A DNA stretch of 64,000 bases, from contig DATLFH010000082.1 of assembly GCA_035524965.1 (NCBI GenBank), forward strand, positions 18,989 to 82,988, given 5' to 3'. The first letter of the stretch is position 1; each line of letters opens with the position of its first letter. Below, piece by piece: positions 1,915 through 44,782 of this stretch. This stretch comes from Gemmatimonadota bacterium (lineage in GTDB: Bacteria > Gemmatimonadota > Gemmatimonadetes > JACCXV01 > JAHWKZ01). A program made the translations under genes and the position numbers. The notes under the pieces are model-generated. The model worked only from the letters and a program-made list of their open reading frames with translations, searched no databases and was not told the origin of the DNA.

Positions 1915-4158
1915 TTAGAAGCCCTCGCCCAGGGTGGGTTGAGCGTCCTCGAGCCGGCCGCCGGCCGGGCGCGATCCGCCGGCGGGGCGCAGGCTCCGCG
2001 GCCGATCGCGCGGGGTGCCGTAGAACCCCCCTTCCCAGCGGGCTCGCTCGCGCAATGCCTCGGAGGGCTCGAAGCGAGGATCGATCGCGGCCGTCCACTC
2101 GTCCAGCCGGTCGATGATGCGCGGCAGCCCGACCTCGTCGGCCCAGCGCAGGAGGCCGCCGCGAAACGGCGGCCAGCCGATCCCCAGGACGAGCGCCAGG
2201 TCGCCGTCGGCGGGCGAGGCGACGATCCCGTCCGCCAGCGCGCGAGCGGCCTCATTGACCATCGGGTACAGGCAGCGCGCCCAGAGGGCGTCGGCTTCGT
2301 AGACCGGCGCCTCGTTCCCCTCCGCCCCGGGGGGCTGGGGGAGCCCCAGCTCGTCCTTGAGCCGCGGGTCGGCTTCAAGCCGCCGGCCGTCCTTGTAGCG
2401 ATAGAACCCCCGGCCCGACTTCCGGCCCAGGCGTCCCATCGTCTCCAGCCGGTGGAGCAGGGCGTGGGGGCGCATTCGCTCTGGATACGTCGCGGAAAGC
2501 ACCCGGCCGACCCGGGCGGCGACGTCCAGCCCGATCTCGTCGAGGAGTGCGAACGGGCCCATCGGCAGGCCGAATTCCTCGATTGTCGCGTCCAGCGACT
2601 CGATCGAAACCCCCTCCGCATACAGGTGCGCGGCTTCGTTGAGATAAGGCATGAGCAGACGGTTGACCCAGAAACCGGGCCCGTCGCCGACGACGACCGG
2701 CGTCTTCCCGAGCGCGCGCGCCGCGCCGTGGAGGGTCGCGAGTGCGTCAGCCGAGGTCCGCTCCCCGCGCACGACCTCGACCAGGACCATCTTCTCGACG
2801 GGGTTGAAGAAGTGGAGGCCTCCGAACCGCTCGGGTCGCGAGAGGGCGCGGGCCAGATCGTCCACCCGGAGCGAGGACGTGTTGGTGGCCAATACCGCTT
2901 CCTCGGGGACCTGCTTCTCGGCTTCGGCCAGCACCGCCCGCTTGACTTCCGGATCCTCGAAGACCGCTTCGACCACCAGGTCCACCGTGCCGAACCCCGT
3001 GTATTTCGTGGTTCCCGAGATCCTGTGCATCAGGTCCCGGATCTCGCGCCGCGCCAGGCGTCCCTTGCTCTCCGCACGGCGTGCGATCCGGGCCGCGTGG
3101 GCGAGCCCGCCGGCCACGCGCTCCACATCCGTGTCCTTGAGGCGCACGTCGATCCCTCGATACGCCGCGACCTCGGCGATCGCCCCGCCCATCACCCCCG
3201 CGCCCAGAATCGCGATCCGGCGGATCGGCCGGGCGGTCCCGACGGAGAGCGGCCTCCGGGCCGCCTCGCCGTGACGGTAGAGCCAGATCAGGTTCCGGGC
3301 GGCGGGGGTCATCGCCAGCTCGCCGACCGCTTCCGCCTCGGCCTCGAGGCCCTGGGTCATCCCCTGCGAGAGCCCGACCTCGATCGCGTCGATCGCGGCG
3401 AAGGGCGCCGGGTAGTGACCGCCCGTCTCCTCCCGGGCCCTCTTGCGGGCCTGCGACAGGACGAGTCGGCGCCCGATCGGGTTCTTCTCGAGGAGGAGTC
3501 CCGCCAGCCCGCCTCCGCCGGGGCCGCCGGGGAGCTCCGAGCCCCGGATCGCCGCCCGCGCGACCTCATCCGCCACCGTCGTAAGCTGCGCCCGCGGCAC
3601 GGCCCGGTCGACGAGGCCCATCCGCTCGGCGGCGCGGGCGGAAATCCGTTTGCCCGTCAGGATCAGGGTGAGGGCGTTCTTCAGTCCCACGATCCGCGGG
3701 GCGCGCTGCGTGCCTCCCCAGGCGGGGAGGATCCCGAGCTGGACTTCGGGAAAGCCGAGCCGGGTCACCTCGTCCTCGCTCGCAACGCGGAAGGAGCACG
3801 CCAGCGCGAACTCGAGCCCGCCCCCGACGCACGCCCCGTGGATCGCCGCCACGGTGGGGACCGAAAGATCGGCCACACGCTGGAACACCGCCTGACCGCG
3901 CCGCGCGAGCGCCGTGGCCTCGATGCCGGAATCGATCGCCGCCAGCATGTCGAGATCGGCGCCGGCGACGAAGCTGTCGTCCTTTCCCGAGCGGAATACG
4001 ACCGCTCCCAGGTCGCCGCGCCCCGTGAGCTCGGCGAGAACCTGCTCGAGCTCGTCCAGAACCGCCCGCGACCAGAGGTTCACGCGCCGGTCCGGCATGT
4101 CAAAAACGACGTGTGCCAGCCCTTCCCTATCTACGAAGTAGTCGAAGGACGCGCGCAT
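1915..4158 (-). CDS. fadJ: fatty-acid oxidation complex alpha subunit (enoyl-CoA hydratase / 3-hydroxyacyl-CoA dehydrogenase)
   Basis: N-terminal crotonase fold (MRASFDYFVD...AIHGACVGGGLEFALAC) and C-terminal NAD-binding 3HCDH (IAILGAGVMGGAIA). The true start at 4158 (ATGCGCGCG) overlaps the thiolase TGA. The 969-aa ORF in the track has a spurious N-terminal extension. Confidence 0.85.
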   Translation of the reverse strand: MRASFDYFVDREGLAHVVFDMPDRRVNLWSRAVLDELEQVLAELTGRGDLGAVVFRSGKDDSFVAGADLDMLAAIDSGIEATALARRGQAVFQRVADLSVPTVAAIHGACVGGGLEFALACSFRVASEDEVTRLGFPEVQLGILPAWGGTQRAPRIVGLKNALTLILTGKRISARAAERMGLVDRAVPRAQLTTVADEVARAAIRGSELPGGPGGGGLAGLLLEKNPIGRRLVLSQARKRAREETGGHYPAPFAAIDAIEVGLSQGMTQGLEAEAEAVGELAMTPAARNLIWLYRHGEAARRPLSVGTARPIRRIAILGAGVMGGAIAEVAAYRGIDVRLKDTDVERVAGGLAHAARIARRAESKGRLARREIRDLMHRISGTTKYTGFGTVDLVVEAVFEDPEVKRAVLAEAEKQVPEEAVLATNTSSLRVDDLARALSRPERFGGLHFFNPVEKMVLVEVVRGERTSADALATLHGAARALGKTPVVVGDGPGFWVNRLLMPYLNEAAHLYAEGVSIESLDATIEEFGLPMGPFALLDEIGLDVAARVGRVLSATYPERMRPHALLHRLETMGRLGRKSGRGFYRYKDGRRLEADPRLKDELGLPQPPGAEGNEAPVYEADALWARCLYPMVNEAARALADGIVASPADGDLALVLGIGWPPFRGGLLRWADEVGLPRIIDRLDEWTAAIDPRFEPSEALRERARWEGGFYGTPRDRPRSLRPAGGSRPAGGRLEDAQPTLGEGF

Positions 4159-5432
4159 CAGCGCTGGCGGCGGAAGACGATCGCGCCCCCCAAGCCCCCG
4201 CCTACACAAAGGGTGGCGAGACCCCACTCGGCCCCGCGGCGCTTCATCTCGAGGAGCAGCGTCAGCGCGAGCCGCGTGCCGGTCGCCGCGATCGGATGTC
4301 CGAGCGCGATCGCGCCGCCGTTCACGTTGAGACGCTCGGGCCGGATCTCGCCGATCGGCGCCGAACGGCCGAGCATCTCGGCCGCCCATTCCCGGGATGG
4401 AAAGACCTCGAGATTTGCGAGCACCACGGCGGCGAACGCCTCGTTGAGCTCGATCAGGTCGACCTCCTCGAGCCCGATGCCGGCGCGACCCAGGGCGAGC
4501 GGCGCGGCCACCGCCGGCCCCAGCCCCATCCGCCGCGGGTCGAGCCCGGCGTAGCCGAAGGATACGAGTGTGCCCAGCGGATCGTACCCCAGCGCGCGCG
4601 CCCGGTCGGCCTCCATCAACAGGACCGCCGCCGCCCCGTCCGTGATCATCGAGGAGTTTCCGGCGGTCACGGTTCCGTGGCGGCGATCGAAGGCTGGCTC
4701 GAGCCGCGCCAGGGCCTCCAGCGACTGGCCGGGACGGTAGCCCACGTCCTCGGCCACGACGTCGGCGAAGTTGGGGGGGACGAAGACCGGCGTCACCTCG
4801 TCGGCGAAGCGCCCCCCGGCCCACGCCGCCGCCGCCCGTTCATGGGAGCCGAGCGCGTACTCGTCCTGCGATCGGCGCGAGAGGTTGAATTCCTTCGCCA
4901 GCACCTCCGCGGTCTCCCCCATGTTGAGGCCGCAGACCGGGTCCGTCAGGCCCTCGGCGAGCGCGACGACCGGCTTCAGGTGCGCGGGGCGGAGGCGGGT
5001 CGCGACGGCGACCTTGCCGGGCACCGAACGCGCGCGGCTGAGGTCGCTCATGACCCCGGCGAACTCCCCCGGATACTGGAGCGGCACCCGGGACATCGAT
5101 TCGACCCCGCCCGCCAGGACGATATCGGACTGCCCGAGGACGATCTGGTTGTAACCGTCGGTCAGGGACTGGAAGCCGGAAGCGCAGTTGCGGGCGACCG
5201 AGAAGGCCGCTACGGGAGGCGGCACCCCGGCGTAGAGCGCGGCCACGCGGGCGATGTTGGGAGCGTCCGCGGGCGGCGCGGCGTTCCCCAGGATGACCTC
5301 GTCGATTTCAGCGGGATCGATCTCCGTCCGCTCGAGGAGCTCGCGGATCGCGGTCCGTGCGAGCTCGACCGCGTCGACGCGGGCCAGCGCGGTTCCCGCC
5401 TTGGCGAACGGGGTCCGGACCCCGTCTACCAC
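4158..5432 (-). CDS. fadI: 3-ketoacyl-CoA thiolase (FadI/FadA-like acetyl-CoA C-acyltransferase)
   Basis: Thiolase motifs (VRTPFAKAG, NCASGFQS active-site Cys, C-terminal GHPIAATG...CVGGGLGGA). The start is uncertain: no ATG follows the upstream stop, and GTG at 5432 is proposed. Confidence 0.75.
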   Translation of the reverse strand: MVDGVRTPFAKAGTALARVDAVELARTAIRELLERTEIDPAEIDEVILGNAAPPADAPNIARVAALYAGVPPPVAAFSVARNCASGFQSLTDGYNQIVLGQSDIVLAGGVESMSRVPLQYPGEFAGVMSDLSRARSVPGKVAVATRLRPAHLKPVVALAEGLTDPVCGLNMGETAEVLAKEFNLSRRSQDEYALGSHERAAAAWAGGRFADEVTPVFVPPNFADVVAEDVGYRPGQSLEALARLEPAFDRRHGTVTAGNSSMITDGAAAVLLMEADRARALGYDPLGTLVSFGYAGLDPRRMGLGPAVAAPLALGRAGIGLEEVDLIELNEAFAAVVLANLEVFPSREWAAEMLGRSAPIGEIRPERLNVNGGAIALGHPIAATGTRLALTLLLEMKRRGAEWGLATLCVGGGLGGAIVFRRQR

Positions 5433-5461
5433 GACGACGCGCCGGTCGTGCCGCCAGGCGT

Positions 5462-6202
5462 CTAAAAGACGGGCTCCAGCGTGGCGTTCTCGCCGGTCAA
5501 CCGCACCGTGTCCTGGCCGCCCTCGCCCTCGACCTGGACGTTCCAGCGATACTGCTGGCTGATCGAGCCCGGCACCGGCGCGGCTCCCAGGATCCACCAT
5601 GTCCCGTTCGGGACGGTGACGTCGGCGAAGCCGTCGGGGTTCGTTTCCGCCCGCTGGAGCGGGAGGTCGCCGATCCGCAGGCTCTCCGCGCTCGCGAACT
5701 CCGCCCCCGGCCATGCGCGCTCCTCCCACGCCCGGCGCGCTTCGCGATACTCGTTCCGCACGGCGGTGTACGTGTCGGTGACCTCCTGGCACCGCGCGAA
5801 CCGCTGCTCCTCGCGGGCGACCAGCACCTGGTAGCGTTCGAACGCCGCGCGGTAGGCGTCCGAGGTCTCTCCCTCCCGTCCGGCTATCGAAGTCGCCTCC
5901 TGGCGGACCGCCTCGATGGAATCACCGGTCACGCGGTAGGCCGTGCAGACATCCTGATACGTCTGCGACAGCGCGCGGATCGAATCGGCGACCGGCGGCT
6001 CGCCGGGTTGGGTCCGGCTCTCCATCTCCTGGTAGAGCTGATCGATGTCGTAGGGGAGGATGTCGAGCGCGACGTTGGAAAGCGGTACCGTCTCCCCCTC
6101 GGCGTTCTGGCCCTGAGCAGCGATCGTCAACTCGGTTTCGGTGCTGCAGGCCACTGCCACCAAGACCAGCGCCGCGGCGCCAAAGGCTTGCCGGATTCCC
6201 AC
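5462..6202 (-). CDS. hypothetical lipoprotein
   Basis: Signal peptide with lipobox (AALVLVAVAC). Acidic/charged mature region. No identifiable domain. Confidence 0.5.
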   Translation of the reverse strand: MGIRQAFGAAALVLVAVACSTETELTIAAQGQNAEGETVPLSNVALDILPYDIDQLYQEMESRTQPGEPPVADSIRALSQTYQDVCTAYRVTGDSIEAVRQEATSIAGREGETSDAYRAAFERYQVLVAREEQRFARCQEVTDTYTAVRNEYREARRAWEERAWPGAEFASAESLRIGDLPLQRAETNPDGFADVTVPNGTWWILGAAPVPGSISQQYRWNVQVEGEGGQDTVRLTGENATLEPVF

Positions 6203-6238
6203 TCTCGACCTCCTCGGGGCTGACGTTAGACGTCCAAG

Positions 6239-7501
6239 TTATGAGCCGCTCGACGCCGGAAGCAACGCCGCGATCCCGCGCGGGACGACGTACGCCCGGA
6301 CCGGCTCGCCCTTGAAATATCTTTGTCCCAGCGCCTGGATCCGCTCCGGCGTGACCGCCTCGATCGCGGTCAGCCAGCGGTCGCCGAAGTCCTGTCCCAG
6401 GCCGTACGCCTCGTACAGCCCCAGCCGGACGGCCTGCGCCATGTTCGTCTCGGCGCCGATCAGGTAGCTGCCCTTCAAATATCGGCGGGCGGCCTCGATC
6501 TCCTCCTCCCTGACCGGCTCGTCGACGATGCGCTCGAACTCCCGCGCCAGACCGTGCGCCGCCTCACCGGCCCGGTCGGGGTCGGTGATGATGTAGGCGG
6601 CGATGAACGAGCCGTCGAGCTGGTCGTTGTAGATCGAAGACACCTGGTAGGCGAGCGAACGCTTCTCGCGGAGCTCGATGAACAGACGCGAAGACATGGA
6701 GCCGCCGAGGATCGCGTCGAGGAGCCGGGCAACCGGGTAGTCGGGGTCGTTGTAATCGGGCGCGGGATACCCGTGCACGAGGTACGCGGCCTGGCGATCG
6801 AGGTCCAGCCGTCGGGCACCCCCGAAGGTCGTGGGCGCAAACGGGCGGGGCTCAGGCGGGGCCAGCGGCGTGCGCCCGAAGGCGGCCTCCATCCGGGCCA
6901 CCAGACGGTCGGGGTCGAAGCGGCCCACCGCCACGACGATCGGTGGGATGGGGCGGTAGAATCGGCGCGCGGCTGCGATCACCTGATCCCGGTCGAATCC
7001 GCGCACCGTCTCCCGGTATCCGAGAGCGGGCTTGTGGTAGGGATGCGAGCCGTATAACTGCTCTCGAAAAAGGTCGACCACCCGCACCATCAACTGGTCC
7101 TCGCGCGCCTCGAGCGCGCCCAGCGCCTGCTCGATCTCGGTGGCGACCTCATCATCCGCAAAGGCCGGCTCGGTCAGGGTCTCCAGAAAGAGGTCGAGAG
7201 CCGGCTCCCACCCGCTCGCCGTCGCCCTCAGGCTGATCGACCCCAGATCGCTTCCCGATCCGGAGTCCAGGTCGGCACCGAGGTCGGCCAGCGCGTCGTG
7301 AAGGGCGTCCGCCGACCGGGTGAGCGTGCCGCGGGGGAGCACGCTCTGCACGAGGCTGGAGATGCCGGCCTCGGGGTCCCGCTCGTAGAGCGACCCCATC
7401 GGCAGGACCGCGCGTATCGCGACGATGTCGTTGGTCTCGAGCGGCCGCGCGAGCACCGTCGCGCCGGCCGACAGGACGTGGCGTCCGTGATCAAGCCCCA
7501 T
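6239..7501 (-). CDS. M16-family peptidase-like protein, non-catalytic partner (lacks HxxEH)
   Basis: M16 fold-like sequence without the HxxEH zinc motif. ATG at 7501 overlaps the upstream M16 gene by 11 nt. Confidence 0.65.
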   Translation of the reverse strand: MGLDHGRHVLSAGATVLARPLETNDIVAIRAVLPMGSLYERDPEAGISSLVQSVLPRGTLTRSADALHDALADLGADLDSGSGSDLGSISLRATASGWEPALDLFLETLTEPAFADDEVATEIEQALGALEAREDQLMVRVVDLFREQLYGSHPYHKPALGYRETVRGFDRDQVIAAARRFYRPIPPIVVAVGRFDPDRLVARMEAAFGRTPLAPPEPRPFAPTTFGGARRLDLDRQAAYLVHGYPAPDYNDPDYPVARLLDAILGGSMSSRLFIELREKRSLAYQVSSIYNDQLDGSFIAAYIITDPDRAGEAAHGLAREFERIVDEPVREEEIEAARRYLKGSYLIGAETNMAQAVRLGLYEAYGLGQDFGDRWLTAIEAVTPERIQALGQRYFKGEPVRAYVVPRGIAALLPASSGS

Positions 7502-29384: not shown

Positions 29385-29414
29385 GTTGACGGTCCCGCGG
29401 CCGCTTGTTATTTT
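29385..29414 (+). promoter_or_regulatory. candidate sigma-70-type promoter of the atp operon (TTGACG-17 bp-TATTTT) overlapping an 8-bp stem hairpin
   Basis: TTGACG at about 29385, a 17-bp spacer, then TATTTT within the only AT-rich patch of the leader. The stem is ccgcttgt/acaagcgg. Confidence 0.35.
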
Positions 29415-29446
29415 TTTCACAAGCGGGCCGGTCCCCTCGAAGAGGC

Positions 29447-29758
29447 ATGATGATCGCGGGAAGACCCCCCGGGCGGCCGCAGAGGACGCCCGATCCGGAA
29501 GGCTCCTCGGAGCGGCAGCGTGTGATCCGCGAGGTCGGGCGCTACACGGGGCTCGGGCTCACGTGGGCGCTCTCGGTTCTCTTCTTTCTCCTGATCGGCT
29601 ACTGGCTGGACGGCAAGCTCGGAACCCTGCCCTGGCTGACGATCGCCGGCGCCTTCGCCGGCGCCGCCGGCGGGTTCGTGACCCTTTATCGAGGTCTGAC
29701 CGCGGCGGAAAAGGGCGCATCGAAAGGCAAAAGGGGCCGGCGCGTGGCCGATCGATGA
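29447..29758 (+). CDS. AtpZ/AtpI-family small membrane protein (ATP synthase operon leader gene)
   Basis: ATGATG at 29447 (the track ORF's TTG at 29405 lies inside the promoter hairpin). Two predicted TM helices. The stop overlaps the next gene (ATGA). Confidence 0.55.
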   Translation: MMIAGRPPGRPQRTPDPEGSSERQRVIREVGRYTGLGLTWALSVLFFLLIGYWLDGKLGTLPWLTIAGAFAGAAGGFVTLYRGLTAAEKGASKGKRGRRVADR

Positions 29759-30126
29759 TCGACTGGCGGTTCCTGGGTGGCATGGCGGCGTTGATGGCGC
29801 TGGCCGCCTGGCCGGCATTCCACTGGGTCGAGCGTTTCCCCGGCGGCCAGGGCGGGCTCGCCGCGGGCCTGGGCTACTCGCTGGTCAGCCTGGGGGTCGG
29901 CTACCACTGGCTCCGCCGGAATGCGTCCCGCACCATCCGCCGCTTCGCGATCGTGCTGGTGGGGGGATTCCTGGCGCGCGCCCTGGGCCTGCTCGTCTTC
30001 GCCCTCACGCTCGCGTACGCCACGGGGGTCAACCTCGCGGTCGCGCTTCTGACCGTTGTCGCGACCCATCTCGTGCTCGGGATGGCCGAGATCGTATACC
30101 TCCACCGTACGGATGCGCTGCGATGA
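29755..30126 (+). CDS. atpI: ATP synthase protein I
   Basis: Small four-helix hydrophobic protein directly preceding atpB, coupled by ATGA overlaps on both sides. Confidence 0.6.
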   Translation: MIDWRFLGGMAALMALAAWPAFHWVERFPGGQGGLAAGLGYSLVSLGVGYHWLRRNASRTIRRFAIVLVGGFLARALGLLVFALTLAYATGVNLAVALLTVVATHLVLGMAEIVYLHRTDALR

Positions 30127-30920
30127 TCCAGGCCGAGCACCATGAGGAGACCGTGGACATCGTCCACCACCTCGCCGACGCCCACGAGATCGAGATCCCG
30201 CCGTTCGGAGCGATCCATCTCCCCGAGTGGGAGCTCTTCGGGCTGGATGTCTCGATCACCAAGTACACGATCTACATGTGGGTCGCGGCCGTGCTGATGC
30301 TGGCGATCTTCATCCCCATGGCGCGCAGCCGCGGGCCGGTCCACAAGGGACTCTTCAACTTCTTCGAGGCGCTCGTCGTCTACGTGCGCGACGAGATCGT
30401 CTATACGAACATCGGCCGCGAGGAGGGACGTCCCTACGTGCCCTTCATCGCGACCCTCTTCTTCTTCATCCTCTTCATGAACCTGCTGGGACTCGTTCCG
30501 TACGGGGCGACGGCGACCGGCAGCCTGGCCGTGACCGGCGTACTGGCCCTGGCTTCGATGATCGCCATCGAGGCGAGCGGCGTGATCGTCAACGGACCGG
30601 TGAGGTACGCCAAATCGCTCGTGCCCGAAGGTCTACCGATCTACCTGGCGCCGATCATGATCCCGATCGAGATCATCGGTCACTTCGCCAAGCCGTTCGC
30701 GCTCATGATCCGTCTCTTCGCCAACATGACCGCCGGGCACGTCGTCATCCTGAGCCTGATCGGGCTCATCTTCGTGCTCAGGACCTGGTTCGTGGCGCCG
30801 ATCTCCGTCGGCTTCGCGCTGTTCATCTATCTCCTGGAGATCCTGATCGCGTTCATCCAGGCGTACATCTTCGCCGTCCTGACCGCCGTGTTCATCCAGC
30901 TCAGCCGTCACCCTCACTAA
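30123..30920 (+). CDS. atpB: F0F1 ATP synthase subunit a
   Basis: Conserved a-subunit helices including LMIRLFANMTAGH. Confidence 0.9.
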   Translation: MIQAEHHEETVDIVHHLADAHEIEIPPFGAIHLPEWELFGLDVSITKYTIYMWVAAVLMLAIFIPMARSRGPVHKGLFNFFEALVVYVRDEIVYTNIGREEGRPYVPFIATLFFFILFMNLLGLVPYGATATGSLAVTGVLALASMIAIEASGVIVNGPVRYAKSLVPEGLPIYLAPIMIPIEIIGHFAKPFALMIRLFANMTAGHVVILSLIGLIFVLRTWFVAPISVGFALFIYLLEILIAFIQAYIFAVLTAVFIQLSRHPH

Positions 30921-30937
30921 CCACAAGGAGACCCCTC

Positions 30938-31180
30938 ATGCAGGAGCTCTTCTACGGATTCGGATGGCTCGGCGCCGGCCTCGGCGCGGGCCTGGCCGTG
31001 CTCGGCGCGGGCCTCGGGATCGGGCGGCTGGCGGGCCCGGCTATGGAAGGTATCGCCCGGCAGCCGGAGGCATCGGGCGAGATCCGGCTCACGATGATCA
31101 TTGCCGCCGCGCTCATCGAAGGCGTGGCCCTGTTCGCGCTCGTGATCTGCATCCTGATGGCGCTCAACGCGCCGGCATGA
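30938..31180 (+). CDS. atpE: F0F1 ATP synthase subunit c
   Basis: 80-aa hairpin proteolipid with the conserved carboxylate ([10 protein letters not shown]). AGGAG lies 8 nt upstream of the ATG. Confidence 0.9.
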
Positions 31181-31190
31181 CCGGAGCGCG

Positions 31191-31688
31191 ATGAACCTCC
31201 TGACGCCCGATCCGGGGCTCATCTTCTGGACGATCGTCACGTTCGCGCTGCTCCTGGCGATCCTGTGGAAGTTCGCCTGGAACCCGATCCTGGGGGCGCT
31301 GGACGCGCGCGAGCAGGCGATCCAGAAGACGATCGACGACGCCGAGCGCCTGCAGGAGGAGGCCGGAAAGCTCCTGGAGGAGCACCGGGCGCAGTTGGCC
31401 CAGGCGCGGACCGAGGGAAACCGCATCCTCGACGAGGCGCGCCAGGCGGGGGAGCACATGAAGTCGGACATCATGGAGAAGGCCCGGTCCGAGGCCGAGA
31501 AGGTGATCGAGCGCGCCCACCGGCAGCTGGAGCTGGAAACCGAGCAGGCGCTCCAGACGATCCGCGGCCAGACGGCGGATCTGGTGCTCAGGGCGGCTGA
31601 GAAGGTGCTCGAGCGTTCGCTGACCGATGCCGACCACCGCCGGCTCGCCGAGGAGGCGATCGCCGAGATCGCCGAGTGGCGGGGCTAG
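31191..31688 (+). CDS. atpF: F0F1 ATP synthase subunit b
   Basis: N-terminal TM followed by a long charged helix. Confidence 0.85.
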
Positions 31689-31698
31689 GGCGCGCGCG

Positions 31699-32253
31699 AT
31701 GCCGTCGAGCACGGTAGCCCGCGTCTACGCCGAGACGCTGCTCCGCTTCGCCGAGCGCGAGGCGGCGGTCGAGCCCGCGACCGAGGGGATCGTCGCGCTC
31801 GCCCGGCTGGTCGCCGAGGATGACCGCTTCCGCCGCTTCCTCGACGCCCCCCAGATCCCGGCCGGCGTCAAGCGATCGGTCGCGCACGCCGCGTTCGAGG
31901 GATGGCTCCACCCGGTTGTGATGAAGTTCCTCGACCTGGTGATCGAGAGGCACCGTGAGCCCCTGCTGGCCGAGATCGCGGACACCTGGAACGAGCTCCT
32001 GGACCGCCGCGCCAACCGCCAGGCGGCGACGGTCACGACCGTGGCCCCGGCCGACCCGGGGCTGATCGAGCGGCTCAGGGACGCGCTCGAGCAGGCGACG
32101 GGCAAGACGATCGATCTCGAGGAACGGGTCGATCCCGGCCTCCTGGGCGGGATCGTCGTCCGGACCGGGGACCTCGTCATGGACTCGAGCCTCCGGTCCC
32201 GGCTCGCCACGCTTCGCCACCGGCTCCGCACCGCCGGCAAAGTACCGGCATGA
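31699..32253 (+). CDS. atpH: F0F1 ATP synthase subunit delta
   Basis: OSCP-like sequence (YAETLLRFA...). ATG at 31699. Confidence 0.8.
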   Translation: MPSSTVARVYAETLLRFAEREAAVEPATEGIVALARLVAEDDRFRRFLDAPQIPAGVKRSVAHAAFEGWLHPVVMKFLDLVIERHREPLLAEIADTWNELLDRRANRQAATVTTVAPADPGLIERLRDALEQATGKTIDLEERVDPGLLGGIVVRTGDLVMDSSLRSRLATLRHRLRTAGKVPA

Positions 32254-32295
32254 AACGGATATCATCCGGAGGAACCGCATGATCGGAGGAATCCC

Positions 32296-34020
32296 GTGAG
32301 CACCGATACCCGACTCCGCCCCGACGAGATCACGAGCATCCTGACGCGCGAGATCGACCGGTACAAGGCCGAGCTCGACGTCGAGGAGGTTGGCACGGTA
32401 CTCGAAGTCGGCGACGGGATCGCGCGGATCTATGGCCTGTCAGCGGCGATGTCGGCCGAGATGCTCGACTTCGGCAACGACCTCTACGGTCTGGCGCTCA
32501 ACCTCGAGGAGGACGTGATAGGCGCGGTGATCATGGGCGACTACGTCACGGTCGAGGAGGGCGACGAGGTGCGCCGGACGGGTCGCCTCATGGTCGTGCC
32601 GGTCGGCGAGGCGCTCCTGGGCCGCGTCGTCAACCCGGTCGGCCAGCCGCTGGACGGCAAGGGGCCGATCACGACCGAGCACTACCGGCCGATCGAGTGG
32701 AAGGCGCCGGGGATCGTCCAGCGGCAGCCCGTCAAGGAACCCCTCCAGACGGGTCTCAAAGCGGTCGACTCGATGGTCCCGATCGGCCGCGGGCAGCGGG
32801 AGCTCATCATCGGCGACCGCGGGACCGGGAAATCGGCGGTCGCGATCGACGCGATCATCAACCAGAAGGAGGGCGACGTCGTCTGCGTCTACATCGCCGT
32901 CGGCCAGAAGGCTTCGACGGTGGCGGCCGTCGTCGAGCGGCTCGAGAAGGAGGGCGCGATGGACTACACGATCGTCGTCAGCGCGCCCGCCTCCGTGCCG
33001 GCGCCGCTCCAGTACATCGCGCCCTACGCGGGGTGCGCGATGGCCGAACACTTCATGTACAACGACAAGAACAACAAACCCGCCACGAAGGACAGCCCCG
33101 GCCGGGCGACGCTGTGTGTCTACGATGATTTGTCCAAGCAGGCGGCGGCCTACCGGCAGCTCTCGCTGCTGCTGCGCCGGCCGCCGGGACGCGAGGCGTA
33201 TCCCGGCGACGTCTTCTACCTCCACTCGCGCCTTCTCGAGCGCGCCGCCAAGCTGTCGGACGAGAAGGGCGGAGGATCCCTGACCGCGCTGCCGATCATC
33301 GAGACCCAGGGCGGCGACGTGTCGGCGTACATCCCGACCAACGTGATCTCGATCACCGACGGCCAGATCTACCTGGAGCCCGATCTGTTCTACGCCGGCG
33401 TGCGACCGGCGATCAACGTCGGGATCTCGGTCAGCCGGGTCGGCGGGAACGCGCAGATCAAGGCGATGAAGAAGGTGGCCGGGACGCTGCGGCTCGATCT
33501 CGCCCAGTTCCGCGAGCTCGAGGCCTTTGCCCAGTTCGGCTCCGAGCTGGACAAAGCGACCCTGCGGCAGCTCGAGCGCGGCCGCCGCACGGTCGAGATC
33601 CTGAAGCAGCCGCAGTTCGAGCCGATGGAGGTCGCCGAGCAGGTGGCGGTCATCTACGCGGTGACGAAGGGCTACCTGGACGATGTCCCGGTCGAGAACG
33701 TGCGCGAGTTCGAGCAGCACTATCTCGATTACGCCCGCAGCTCGCGGGCCGAGGTCCTCCAGAAGATCGCCGAGCAGAAGGAGCTGTCCGAGGACGTCGA
33801 GAAGGCGCTCGTCGATTCGATCGAGAGCTTCCGCAAGGACTTCCACGCGGCCGGCGAGGCCAAGGTGATCGAGACGGTCCCAGGGGAGGAAGAGGAGAGC
33901 CCGCTGACCGGCGGCGGCAGCGGCGGGGCCGGGGAGGAGCCCCGCGCGGAGGATGCCGGCCCGGCCGGGGAAGCTGGGACCGAAGAGGTCGCTGTGCCCT
34001 CCGAGGCCGAGCGGAGGTAG
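32296..34020 (+). CDS. atpA: F0F1 ATP synthase subunit alpha (with acidic C-terminal extension)
   Basis: P-loop GDRGTGKS and the conserved alpha-subunit core. About 70 extra Glu/Ala/Gly-rich residues at the C-terminus. Confidence 0.95.
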
Positions 34021-34959
34021 ATGGCCAAGGCCCGCGAGATCAAGCGCCGGATCCGCTCCATCGAGAACACCCGGCAGATCACCAAGACGATGGAGATGGT
34101 GGCGGCGTCCAAGCTCAAGCGGGCGCAGGACCGGGTCGTCGCCGCGCGTCCGTTCGACGAGTTCATGCGCCAGGTGATCGCCCAGGTCCGGGAAGGGGCG
34201 CGCGAGGAAGCGGGCGAGTTCCCGCTCCTCAGGGACGAGCCGGGGACCGGTCGGGCAGGGATCCTGACGGTGACCTCCAACCGCGGCCTGGCCGGCGCCT
34301 TCAACGCGAACCTGGGCCGCGAAACCCGCCGCCTCATCGAGCGCCTGAAGGCGGAGGGCAAGACGGTCGAGCTCCACGTCATCGGCAAAAAAGGGGCGGC
34401 GATGCTCCGCTACCAGGGCCACCCGCCCGACCGCGTCATCATCGACCTTTCCGACCGGCCCTCCTACCAGGAGGCCGACGAGGTCGCCACTCCCTTGATC
34501 GACGCGTTCACCGACCGGCGGCTGGACGAGGTCCACGTGGTGTACTCCCTTTTCAAGACCCCGGTCGAGCAACGCCCGGTCGCCGTGCAGATCCTTCCGC
34601 TGCCGACGGAAGAGGAGATCGAAGAAGAGGGATCGAAGGGCGGCCGTCCGGTTTCCCAGCCTCGCCGCGAGACCGAGCGGGAGAAGGCCGGCTACGAGCC
34701 GATCTACGAGTTCCTCCCGTCCTCAGGGGCGATCCTCCACCGGCTCCTGCCCCTCTTTCTCCGCTACGGTGTCTACCGGGCGGTGATCGAGAGCGCCGCC
34801 AGCGAGCACGGCGCCCGCCGCACGGCGATGAAGAACGCGACCGACAACGCGCAGGAGATCATCCGCACGCTCACGCGCTCATACAACCGGGCGCGTCAGG
34901 CCCAGATCACCCAGGAGATCGCCGAGCTGGTGGGCGGCGCCGAGGCGCTCAAAGGATGA
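34021..34959 (+). CDS. atpG: F0F1 ATP synthase subunit gamma
   Basis: Conserved N- and C-terminal helices (MAKAREIKRRIRSIENTRQITKTMEMVAASKL...ITQEIAELVGGAEAL). Confidence 0.9.
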   Translation: MAKAREIKRRIRSIENTRQITKTMEMVAASKLKRAQDRVVAARPFDEFMRQVIAQVREGAREEAGEFPLLRDEPGTGRAGILTVTSNRGLAGAFNANLGRETRRLIERLKAEGKTVELHVIGKKGAAMLRYQGHPPDRVIIDLSDRPSYQEADEVATPLIDAFTDRRLDEVHVVYSLFKTPVEQRPVAVQILPLPTEEEIEEEGSKGGRPVSQPRRETEREKAGYEPIYEFLPSSGAILHRLLPLFLRYGVYRAVIESAASEHGARRTAMKNATDNAQEIIRTLTRSYNRARQAQITQEIAELVGGAEALKG

Positions 34960-35025
34960 AGCACGGTCCCGTTCCCGAAGCCCGGCTCGCCGACACACCC
35001 CAGGGCAGAGACCGGTCCACGGTAG

Positions 35026-36516
<1,491 letters not shown>

Positions 36517-36539
36517 ACGCCGTCGAGGGACGAACGATG

Positions 36540-36983
36540 GTGGAGACGAGAACCGAGGGGGCGGCCGCCCGCGGGGCGGGCGAGGCGGGCGGCAGGCTCC
36601 ACGTCCGGATCATCACCCCCGAGCGGATCGCCTACGAGGGCGGGGCCGACGGGGTCGTGGCGACCGCCTACGACGGCGAGTTCGGGATCCTACCCCGCCA
36701 CGCGCCGATGATGGTCGTCCTTGGGATCGGCGAGTTCCGGCTCCGGCACGGCGACCGCTACGAGTGGTTCGCGATCGGCGAGGGGTTTCTGCACGTGCTG
36801 GACGACGTCGTCACGGTCCTAACCCCCTACGCCGAGTCGGCCCGCGAGATCGGCGTCGAGACCGCCCGCCGGCTCGAGATGACCGCCGCCGAGAACCCCC
36901 TCCTCCATGGGACGATCCTGGGGGAGGAGCAGCGCCGACGCCTCGGCGCGATCCGCGAGCGGGTGGCCAGGAAGGCCCGCTAA
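36540..36983 (+). CDS. atpC: F0F1 ATP synthase subunit epsilon (about 20-aa N-terminal extension)
   Basis: Epsilon core starts around LHVRIITPE. ATG at 36540 gives a Gly/Ala-rich extension. Confidence 0.8.
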   Translation: METRTEGAAARGAGEAGGRLHVRIITPERIAYEGGADGVVATAYDGEFGILPRHAPMMVVLGIGEFRLRHGDRYEWFAIGEGFLHVLDDVVTVLTPYAESAREIGVETARRLEMTAAENPLLHGTILGEEQRRRLGAIRERVARKAR

Positions 36984-37134
36984 TTCCGGCGGTCCAGCTC
37001 CAGCCTCAGCCCCGGGATACAAATGTGGATAGATGTGGAAAATTTGAGGCGCCGTCCCGTTTACTACCTTGCAATGTGTTACTATGAAATGACTTAGCAT
37101 GCAGATGGCCGAATCCGCGTCACCCCCCGCCAAT

Positions 37135-37644
37135 TCACAAATTTCGGGCGCTCTCGGATTCCTTCTTCAAGGACCGGACGACACTTTCGTCCCTCGTTTC
37201 CGGAACGAGCTCTTCCGGCCCGCGCTCGCCGGAGCCCACCCGCAAGCGGGCCTCGTCGGCCTGTGTGAACTCCATCCGACAGCTCCCCTCGAAGAACACG
37301 CCCGGCTCGATCACGAAGGAGCGGGTCAGGACGTCGCCTTCCAGCCGGGCCCCCTTCTGGAGCTCGACCTGCTCGGTGCCCAGAACCTCCCCCTTGAACC
37401 GCCCGCCGATGACGACCGACCGGCCGCAGGCGGTCCCGCTGAACGAGCCCGCCTGCCCGATGATCAGCGTTTCCCCGACCTCGAGACGCCCCCGGAAGGC
37501 GCCGTCCAACCTGAGCGTGCCCTCGACGCGGGCGGTCCCCTCGCACTCGACCCCCGTCCCCAACAGCGAGCTCAGTCCGTTGCTCGTCCCCTCCCGCCTG
37601 GACATCGTGTCCTCCTCTGGCTCTGGTCTGAATCCCCGGATCAT
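37135..37644 (-). CDS. bactofilin (polymer-forming cytoskeletal protein, DUF583)
   Basis: Repetitive beta-helical pattern (GTLRLDGAFRGRLEVGETLIIGQAGSFSGTACGRSVVIGGRFKGEVLGTEQVELQKGARLEGDVL). ATG overlaps the TGA of the M23 gene. Confidence 0.8.
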   Translation of the reverse strand: MIRGFRPEPEEDTMSRREGTSNGLSSLLGTGVECEGTARVEGTLRLDGAFRGRLEVGETLIIGQAGSFSGTACGRSVVIGGRFKGEVLGTEQVELQKGARLEGDVLTRSFVIEPGVFFEGSCRMEFTQADEARLRVGSGERGPEELVPETRDESVVRSLKKESESARNL

Positions 37645-39322: not shown

Positions 39323-40272
39323 TGGGCGATCAGCTCCTCCGCGAGATTCATGTAACCCACCGCGCCGGCCGACAGGATATCGTAGAGGATGACGGGCTTT
39401 CCGAAGCTCGGCGCCTCGGAGAGCCGCACATTACGGGGAATGACGGTATCGTACACTTTCTCGCCGAAATACTCAACCGCCTCCTCCTCCACCTGCCGGG
39501 CCAGGTTGAGGCGCGCGTCGTACATCGTGAGCAGGACGCCTTCGATGGAGAGTCGCGGGTTGAGCTTCTTCTGGACGATGCGGATCGTGCCCAGAAGCTG
39601 CGAGAGCCCTTCCAGGGCGTAGTATTCGCACTGGATCGGTATGAGGACGGAGTCGACCGCCGTCAAGGCGTTGACCGTCAGCAGTCCGAGCGAGGGGGGG
39701 CAGTCGACGAAGATGAAGTCGTACCCGCTCCGGTGGCCATCGAGCGCGGCCTCGAGGCGGTGCTCGCGCCCGATCGCGCTGACCAGCTCGACCTCGGCTC
39801 CGAAGAGATCGACGTTGGCGGGAGCGAGGTCGAGGAACGCGATCGAAGTCGGCAGGATCGCCTCGGCGAGGGGGACGTCGTTGACGATGACGTCGTAGAC
39901 GCTGGTCCGCAGCGACTCCTTGGCGATCCCAAGCCCGCTCGAGGCGTTCCCCTGCGGGTCCAGATCGATGAGGAGGGTTCGTTTCTCGGCCGCGGCCAGG
40001 CAGGCGGCAAGGTTGACCGCGGTCGTCGTCTTGCCGACTCCCCCCTTCTGGTTGGCGATCGCGATGACGCGGGCGCTCGGAGAAGCTACGCGAATTTCCG
40101 CCGGTGCTGTTTCACGTGAAACGTCCGGGGGCGAGGCGGATGAATCGGGCCGCCCGGCATCCGCCCGCGTGACGGGCGGATCGGCGGCGAAAACCCGATC
40201 CAGCTCGTCCCCGTCCCTCCGCACGGGCGCCGGTCCATCCTTCCCCCGTTCCCGCCCGCGACCCTTCGTCAT
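39319..40272 (-). CDS. parA: chromosome partitioning ATPase ParA/Soj (with Arg-rich N-terminal extension)
   Basis: Deviant Walker A ([18 protein letters not shown]). The first in-frame canonical start is ATG at 40272; no ATG/GTG/TTG lies closer to the Walker A. The 969-aa ORF in the track is a read-through artefact. Confidence 0.8.
40108..40123. promoter_or_regulatory. parS centromere-like site (TGTTTCACGTGAAACG)
   Basis: 15/16 match to the TGTTTCACGTGAAACA consensus. It is palindromic and the only such site in the window. It lies in the parA 5' region. Confidence 0.7.
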
Positions 40273-43004: not shown

Positions 43005-43033
43005 TTGACAGTCCACCGACCGCTCGCTACTAT
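43005..43033 (+). promoter_or_regulatory. candidate sigma-70 promoter for dnaA (TTGACA-17 bp-TACTAT)
   Basis: Perfect -35 TTGACA at 43005..43010 and -10 TACTAT at 43028..43033 with a 17-bp spacer, about 65 nt upstream of the proposed dnaA start. Confidence 0.45.
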
Positions 43034-44497: not shown

Positions 44498-44782
44498 GGA
44501 CCGCCGCTGTTTTCGCGCGTCGTCCGTGTGGGGAAATCCTGGGGACGTGCGTGCAAAAAGCGGAGCTTCCGGGTCCGCCGCTGCGTCTTTCCTCAATGGT
44601 CGGGGTTTCATCCCCACGCTGCCGGCGGCGTCGAGTGACGCGAAGAACAGCGTCGGAACAGCGCGAGCGTCCCTTATCCGGGTGGCTTTCCACAAATTCA
44701 CGGTTCCTACTATTACTACTAGTTTTCTATTTCACAGGTAGCAGAACGGTTTCTCGCTGGGGATATCCTCGCCGGAGGTAGG
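44498..44782. promoter_or_regulatory. candidate oriC: dnaA-dnaN intergenic region with degenerate DnaA boxes and an AT-rich DNA unwinding element
   Basis: DnaA-box-like 9-mers (TTATCCGGG, cTTTCCACA, TGTGGGGAA, TCATCCCCA) and the AT-rich stretch ttcctactattactactagttttctatttcac at 44705..44737. Confidence 0.45.

Follow-up and report, generated by a model that had tools for sequence, protein, structure and literature searches.

What does a short, AT-rich gap between two convergent genes, a few kilobases from dnaA, do in a Gemmatimonadota genome? The first-pass annotation of this locus had noted two DnaA boxes in the gap and had offered three readings of it: a secondary DnaA-binding locus similar to datA or DARS, the true replication origin, or a bidirectional terminator or small RNA (sRNA) region. 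The question reaches beyond this genome. Control of DnaA by loci outside the origin is understood mechanistically mainly in Escherichia coli (datA and DARS1/2), genetic evidence for it also comes from Bacillus subtilis and Streptomyces (PMC3245932), and much less is established about the restraint and reactivation of DnaA in other phyla. We examined the gap in its sequence context (the "window," that is, the whole 64-kb stretch of DNA that was analyzed) and in the corresponding loci of related genomes.

The gap spans positions 36984 to 37134, and the genes on its two sides do converge on it, as the first-pass annotation had described. To its left lies the atp operon on the plus strand, with atpD at 35071 to 36516 and atpC, the last gene of the operon, at 36534 to 36983 (Pfam PF02823, ATP-synt_DE_N). 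The product of atpC is a 100% match to P0001 ("ATP synthase F1 subunit epsilon [Gemmatimonadota bacterium]"). To its right, the genes for bactofilin, an M23 peptidase, ParB, and ParA follow each other from 37135 to ~40100, all on the minus strand. The bactofilin gene (37135 to 37605, minus strand; Pfam PF04519) is the last gene of this parA-parB-M23-bactofilin operon and has its stop codon at 37135 to 37137. Its product has 156 amino acids when read from the annotated start (169 in a longer reading of the open reading frame) and is a 100% match to P0121. Directly upstream of parA is a parS-like palindrome, TGTTTCACGTGAAACG (40108 to 40123; one mismatch to TGTTTCACGTGAAACA), the only such site in the window at up to three mismatches. 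Beyond parA are yidC, rnpA, and rpmH on the minus strand, and then dnaA, dnaN, recF, gyrB, and gyrA on the plus strand from ~43.1 kb; the start of dnaA lies about 6 kb rightward of the gap, the distance given earlier.

The gap is also the AT-rich island that it had been taken for, having a GC content of 0.54 versus 0.693 in the window. No other stretches of 100 bp and 150 bp in the 64 kb are as AT-rich as its best ones (GC contents of 0.43 and 0.48, respectively). Next in rank comes the origin unwinding region at ~44670, in the spacer between dnaA and dnaN.

Two DnaA boxes of the gap form a tandem pair on the minus strand. Box c (37024 to 37032) reads CTATCCACA on the minus strand and TGTGGATAG on the plus strand, with one mismatch to TTATCCACA, and box b (37034 to 37042) reads TTTTCCACA on the minus strand and TGTGGAAAA on the plus strand, 10 bp in phase with box c. 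Both TGTGGATAG and TGTGGAAAA agree with TGTGGATAA at 8 of 9 positions, as had been claimed; the 1 bp that separates them (10 bp from start to start) replaces the 3 bp of the first-pass annotation. Together, the two boxes make a same-strand direct repeat with 10-bp phasing. At up to one mismatch, TTATCCACA occurs at four sites in the 64-kb window, compared to 1.56 expected from shuffles, and two of the four are boxes b and c. No site at this threshold is found in the dnaA-dnaN spacer or the rpmH-dnaA spacer, which bears out the earlier statement that the boxes of the gap are better than those between dnaA and dnaN. An additional perfect box found ~6 kb away in two relatives (L001 and L009) was discarded, as it falls within a coding part of the atp operon and has no conserved counterpart in the window.

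The tandem pair is present in all 14 relatives that were found via the bactofilin protein, always in the gap between bactofilin and atpC and always in the form TT[T/G]TCCACA-N-[T/C]T[A/G]TCCACA. These 14 loci come from metagenome-assembled genomes of Gemmatimonadota or Gemmatimonadales (one is titled only "uncultured bacterium"), and all of them keep, as far as the contigs reach, the gene order recF-dnaN-dnaA/rpmH-rnpA-yidC-parA-parB-M23-bactofilin/atpC-atpD. Seven further syntenic lineages or loci, retrieved through homologs of atpC or bactofilin (L087 to L089, L090 to L092, L093, L094, L096, L097, and L099), have the pair as well. Hence the TCCACA core and the 10-bp phasing are found in 21 of the 21 syntenic Gemmatimonadota loci retrieved by protein homology, a retrieval independent of the motif. 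With atpC 73 to 86% and bactofilin 66 to 85% identical, the sampled relatives represent one part of Gemmatimonadota.

Conservation extends to the individual positions of the boxes. We compiled 24 non-redundant copies of the locus, which include pattern-selected metagenome loci; the 17 pattern-selected metagenome copies count only for the central motifs described below, not for the boxes. Orthologues of box c read [T/C]T[A/G]TCCACA and those of box b read TT[T/G]TCCACA in 24 of 24 non-redundant relatives, and the TCCACA core is invariant in all 48 boxes. Among the first 15 copies retrieved by protein homology, variation within boxes b and c is limited to positions 1 and 3, and the 1-bp gap between the boxes is kept in all 15 of them as well as in the further copies. 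Positions 1 and 3 of the box are those at which DnaA tolerates substitutions, as seen in the E. coli and high-GC variants of the consensus. In a gapless alignment anchored on the tandem pair, the pairwise identity across seven independent lineages is 0.91 in the boxes versus 0.32 in the spacer, a value close to that of unrelated GC-rich DNA. Because the pair is conserved in every syntenic relative examined, its presence is far beyond chance. Judged by this alignment, purifying selection on the boxes is strong.

The pair is part of a larger arrangement. A third, weaker box, box a (37131 to 37139, plus strand; CAATTCACA, two mismatches to the relaxed consensus TTATNCACA), faces the opposite way to the pair and, in this genome, overlaps the stop codon of the bactofilin gene. 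In every one of the 15 protein-retrieved loci, its TGTGNAT core is located at −95 ± 2 relative to the tandem pair. The columns of box a also have high information in the 24 non-redundant copies, for some of which box a was included in the search pattern.

Between box a and the pair are two central motifs of the form YAA-N4-TTR. Motif 1 (37087 to 37096; AAATGACTTA on the plus strand and TAAGTCATTT on the minus strand) occupies columns −53 to −44 of the alignment, and motif 2 (37072 to 37081; CAATGTGTTA on the plus strand), an inverted copy of motif 1 that stands 15 bp from it, occupies columns −38 to −29. Across the 24 non-redundant copies, motif 1 has an A at −52 in 24 copies and at −51 in 21, and a T at −46 and −45 in 22; motif 2 has an A at −37 in 22 copies and a T at −31 in 23, and its columns −36, −30, and −29 are conserved too. 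The central motifs were in no search pattern. As calculated from the anchored alignment, the two motifs are centered on −41, the point halfway between box a and the tandem pair, and the distance between boxes a and b is ~95 bp from center to center, or about nine helical turns. The whole module (37024 to 37139) therefore consists of the tandem pair, a spacer of ~88 to 90 bp with the two central motifs, and the inverted box a. It is a module of ~135 bp, with its three conserved boxes within 116 bp, and its spacing is constant to ±2 bp while the spacer itself is random-like in identity. Beyond these shared parts, two or three weaker phased boxes are added on the atpC side in L004, L010 to L014, L087, L090, L093, L096, L097, and L099, and in some lineages the additional boxes number two to four; the window and the L001 to L009 group are without extra boxes on that side.

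We considered whether the central motifs could be the arms of a hairpin and rejected this possibility, as their variable N4 cores are non-complementary in the window and in L070. The conservation of the motifs, as read from the alignment columns, is one of positions and not of pairing. The motifs match only the CAA-N4-TTR core of the E. coli IHF consensus. No gene for HU or IHF was found in the 64-kb window with probe sequences, a search that is uninformative for the genome as a whole.

Given this architecture, we hypothesize, with moderate confidence, that the gap holds a dedicated, non-origin, oriC-proximal putative DnaA-binding module of Gemmatimonadota that regulates DnaA. Under this hypothesis, the tandem pair would be occupied by DnaA, as would, cooperatively, the inverted box a, which at ~95 bp, or roughly nine helical turns, would lie on the same face of the DNA as the pair. 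The spacer would be folded by a DNA-bending protein, or some other dimeric protein, at the central motifs, so that the DnaA molecules on the two arms would meet. Located 7.6 kb from oriC, the module would be duplicated right after initiation, and the resulting complex may then titrate DnaA or change its nucleotide state, providing a feedback on initiation similar to that of the oriC-proximal DnaA-box clusters of B. subtilis and of datA and DARS in E. coli. Each of these steps, from the binding of DnaA and of a second protein at the central motifs to the folding and to an effect on initiation of either sign, is inferred from sequence features. Because three invariant boxes are fewer than those of datA, the capacity of the module for simple titration would be small. 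A bolder proposal, which we regard as possible but doubtful, is that the module is a clade-wide and perhaps phylum-wide DnaA switch, in which a complex similar to those of datA and DARS2 is tied to the parAB-M23-bactofilin genes and couples chromosome segregation to the control of initiation.

The closest known counterparts of the module may be the oriC-proximal DnaA-box clusters (DBCs) of B. subtilis, which restrain initiation; their loss leads to early initiation and shows a genetic interaction with Soj/Spo0J (PMC3245932). Like them, the module is a set of several boxes clustered in intergenic DNA near but outside oriC, the B. subtilis clusters lying a few to tens of kilobases from the dnaA-dnaN origin. 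One of these clusters, thdF-jag, shares with the module its place in the rpmH-side, origin-proximal gene block, and both the clusters and the module are associated, functionally or physically, with a ParA/ParB system. The module differs from the B. subtilis clusters in its three invariant boxes, its rigid spacing, its inverted box, and its two additional conserved motifs. The B. subtilis clusters probably contain more boxes than the three of the module. Moreover, because the module is located at a convergent gene end, it cannot be a promoter-proximal regulator of a neighboring gene.

The comparison to the E. coli loci, which the first-pass annotation had suggested, holds in part. Of its three readings, the secondary DnaA-binding locus is the best supported, given the conserved three-box architecture 7.6 kb from the origin, but this architecture departs from the definition of datA and agrees with that of DARS only in the orientation of its boxes, and binding of DnaA to it is a prediction from sequence. 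The module resembles datA in being compact, in combining high- and low-affinity boxes with a (here putative) site for a bending protein between them, and in its location just downstream of a highly transcribed operon, where it would be duplicated early. It differs from datA in that its two central motifs form an inverted pair and agree with the IHF consensus in its core only, and it has no sequence homology to datA. The datA locus, which promotes hydrolysis of the ATP bound to DnaA and depends on a single IHF-binding site between its boxes, has five high-affinity boxes (PMC3245932), and its minimal region of 183 bp comprises boxes 7, 2, and 3 and an IHF site downstream of a tRNA operon, with read-through transcription modulating the binding of IHF (PMC5742627, PMC10950094). 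At both datA and DARS2, an IHF site stands at tuned distances from the DnaA boxes (PMC5742627, PMC10950094). The essential boxes of datA all share one direction (PMC5742627), whereas in all 15 loci box a points opposite to the pair.

The DARS loci (DnaA-reactivating sequences) have a core of three closely spaced boxes, of which box I is opposite to boxes II and III (PMC5742627). The module shares with DARS1 and DARS2 this orientation of one box against two and, with DARS2, whose IHF site is at a defined distance, a fixed position of the intervening elements. However, boxes I and II of DARS are packed for head-to-head contacts, while the opposite box of the module is ~95 bp away across the central motifs, leaving a gap of ~88 bp between boxes that is not close. 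The module is therefore best called a variant of the non-origin DnaA loci with an architecture of its own. It is short, rigid, and conserved in many uncultured Gemmatimonadota, and its three boxes and two central motifs are parts that can be mutated.

Could the conserved sites serve transcription instead? The earlier reading of the gap as a bidirectional terminator or sRNA region finds no support in this window: a scan of the window detected neither an intrinsic terminator nor a sigma-70 promoter match inside the gap, the gap folds as RNA no better than its shuffles (z = −0.26 and +1.73 on the two strands), Rfam gave no match for the window at the gathering threshold or for positions 36800 to 37350 at E ≤ 1, and no tRNA or tmRNA was found. 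One weak terminator-like site (37143 to 37158) is located inside the coding region of bactofilin. By eye, the central region of the L010 spacer contains a terminator-like hairpin that carries a T-run, and L001 has an imperfect inverted repeat at this place.

A role in transcription could also involve DnaA itself, either as a roadblock or terminator between the convergent operons or as the regulator of a promoter for an unannotated small or antisense RNA. The 28 to 40 bp from the atpC stop codon to the boxes hold no intrinsic terminator in the window and the L001 to L009 group, and an extended −10-like sequence, TGtTACTAT, is found on the plus strand at 37077 to 37085. There is also a precedent at datA, where DnaA on box 2, together with IHF, attenuates transcription that reads through from the tRNA operon upstream (PMC10950094). 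Nevertheless, we dropped TGtTACTAT as a promoter, since no −35/−10 pair stands at fixed columns in the 24 copies, and the gap offers neither a sigma-70 promoter match nor a structured or Rfam-listed RNA. Furthermore, neither an inverted box at a fixed distance nor a pair of central motifs would be needed for a roadblock, and L099 retains the module with a co-directional gene, not atpC, as its downstream neighbor. We consider a role in transcription unlikely.

The same locus in L099 indicates with which of its two neighbors the module belongs. In L099, bactofilin and atpC are separated by an inserted Tricorn/PD40-type gene (L099 positions 3287 to 4741); the module is found in full beside the bactofilin stop codon, and nothing of it is found in the 70 bp before atpC. 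Conversely, L085 and L086 have no box after atpC, where the neighbors are unrelated genes instead of bactofilin (in L085, positions 3482 to 6303, atpC is followed by unannotated genes and by ABC-transporter and GntR genes). Therefore, it is to the 3′ end of the parA-parB-M23-bactofilin operon, and not to the atp operon, that the module belongs, a linkage for which the evidence is these two cases of broken synteny.

This co-travel with the par-bactofilin operon raises an alternative in which the module organizes the chromosome, by anchoring the origin region or by coupling ParA/ParB to DnaA, and does not control the DnaA pool. The parS site 3 kb away (40108 to 40123) would fit such a role, as would the finding that the phenotype of losing DnaA-box clusters in B. 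subtilis depends on spo0J/soj (PMC3245932). However, two broken-synteny cases are a narrow basis for the linkage, the co-location may simply reflect a conserved block of origin-proximal genes, and the module has no sequence feature specific for the binding of ParB or bactofilin. We find this alternative quite improbable, and we continue to favor a module that acts on DnaA.

The possibility that the gap is the replication origin, whether a true, a second, or a vestigial one with a surviving DnaA-assembly region, deserves attention because the DnaA boxes of the gap are the best in the window and its DNA is the most AT-rich. In the basal unwinding system of bacterial origins, a single or tandem DnaA box is followed, at most 16 bp away, by DnaA-trios of the 3′-GAT-5′ type, with a typical box-to-trio spacing of 10 to 13 bp (PMC8287927). 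A tandem pair, as in the module, is the commonest arrangement of the boxes in that system, whereas the trios and the AT-rich element are absent from the module and present at dnaA-dnaN of the same window. A scan of both strands of the window found no trio array 3′ of box a, b, or c. Nor is there an AT-rich element 3′ of any of the three boxes, the flanks being bactofilin coding sequence at box a and GC-rich DNA at the pair. The AT-rich DNA of the gap lies between the boxes, 5′ of each of them, which is the wrong side.

The sole unit of box and trios on either strand of the window is located in the dnaA-dnaN spacer (44686 to 44735, plus strand), 7.6 kb from the module, and is conserved in nine relatives. 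It is composed of the box CTTTCCACA (44686 to 44694), a 12-nt spacer, the trios CTA CTA TTA CTA CTA (44707 to 44721), and an AT-rich segment (44722 to 44735), and its spacing fits the definition of the basal unwinding system (PMC8287927). The box is preceded by TTATCCggg (44674 to 44735 for the extended unit). Degenerate phased boxes, TGTGGGGAAATCCTGGGGAC, are found at 44527 to 44546, directly after the stop codon of dnaA.

Nucleotide skew and gene orientation also argue against an origin in the gap. The cumulative GC-skew check that had been suggested for the first-pass reading places the minimum at 39497, with a plateau to ~44.8 kb, and the gap is ~200 counts above this minimum; the skew is weak, noisy, and confounded by the coding strand, and as such it speaks against the gap and does not pinpoint the origin. 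The GC3 skew per gene was too noisy for placing an origin. Gene orientation diverges at rpmH/dnaA and converges at the gap. Because the operons point into the gap, both would be head-on to forks leaving it. On these grounds, we abandoned the reading of the gap as the true replication origin; the gap is very probably not an origin, and the origin likely lies between dnaA and dnaN. The placement of the likely oriC of these genomes at dnaA-dnaN, by its unit of box, trios, and AT-rich DNA, is useful for annotation.

Additional context for the origin question comes from other taxa. We scanned metagenome contigs with the pattern TGTGNAT-N{86,91}-TTNTCCACA-N-YTNTCCACA and obtained 70 loci. Seventeen of them are the bactofilin/atpC gap of Gemmatimonadota, 26 belong to lower-GC taxa and adjoin dnaA there, for the most part between dnaA and dnaN, and the other 27 lack any relative of the window genes within 3 kb, some of these resembling coding sequence. 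In L039, L045, L062, and L073, a TTTTCCACAGTTTTCCACA tandem is found inside apparently conserved coding sequence of a high-GC organism and is probably a chance match.

The seven origins from other taxa that were read have a 10-bp-phased pair ~88 bp from an inverted box, and in all seven the trios and the AT-rich element follow the inverted box. In five dnaA-dnaN spacers of unrelated lower-GC taxa (L016, L015, L032, L038, and L074), a phased TGTGGATAAcTGTGGATAA pair is followed after ~88 bp, a distance that the scan selected, by an inverted pair of boxes, then 3 to 4 nt, CTA-type trios, and an AT-rich stretch. The Gemmatimonadota module thus appears to resemble, in its box geometry, the DnaA-assembly region of a real origin minus the unwinding half. 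Because origins hold many boxes and the scan selected the spacing, this is a resemblance and not proof of common descent. A reading related to the proposed DnaA switch is that the module may derive from an origin of which the DnaA-assembly half survived and the unwinding half was lost.

That a tandem pair, an 88-bp spacer, and an inverted box abutting DnaA-trios occur in genuine dnaA-dnaN origins of other taxa is a further point in favor of an origin in the gap. Set against the missing trios and AT-rich element 3′ of the three boxes, the complete and conserved unit at dnaA-dnaN, a GC-skew minimum elsewhere, and flanking operons that converge on the gap, we regard an origin of any kind at this site as very improbable. 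Finally, although AT-rich DNA is richer in short motifs, the notion that the boxes are chance, functionless words in an AT-rich terminator gap is effectively refuted, since every syntenic relative conserves their cores and spacing against a saturated background.

Several minor observations concern the genes around the module. Upstream of dnaA is a near-consensus promoter, TTGACA-N17-TACTAT (43005 to 43033). Classic boxes for dnaA autoregulation are not evident, because the rpmH-dnaA spacer has no box at up to one mismatch. The atp operon (29386 to 36983) is transcribed toward oriC and is hence head-on to the fork from dnaA-dnaN. It forms an inverted island in a left flank that is otherwise co-oriented (900 to 29252, all on the minus strand), and the orientation of its atpC-atpD end is kept in all syntenic relatives. 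No gene passed the GC3 filter between 29252 and 31158, a region that probably encodes membrane subunits, and the start of the operon (30001 to 31000) has a GC content of 0.63 and a strongly negative GC skew of −0.10. The likely promoter of the operon, TTGACG-N17-TATTTT, is located within 29386 to 29423 and is overlapped by a conserved inverted repeat, CTTGTTATTTTTTTCACAAG, which is also found in L001 and may be an operator. We rejected TTTTTCACA at ~29413 as a DnaA site, as it is part of this inverted repeat at the atp promoter.
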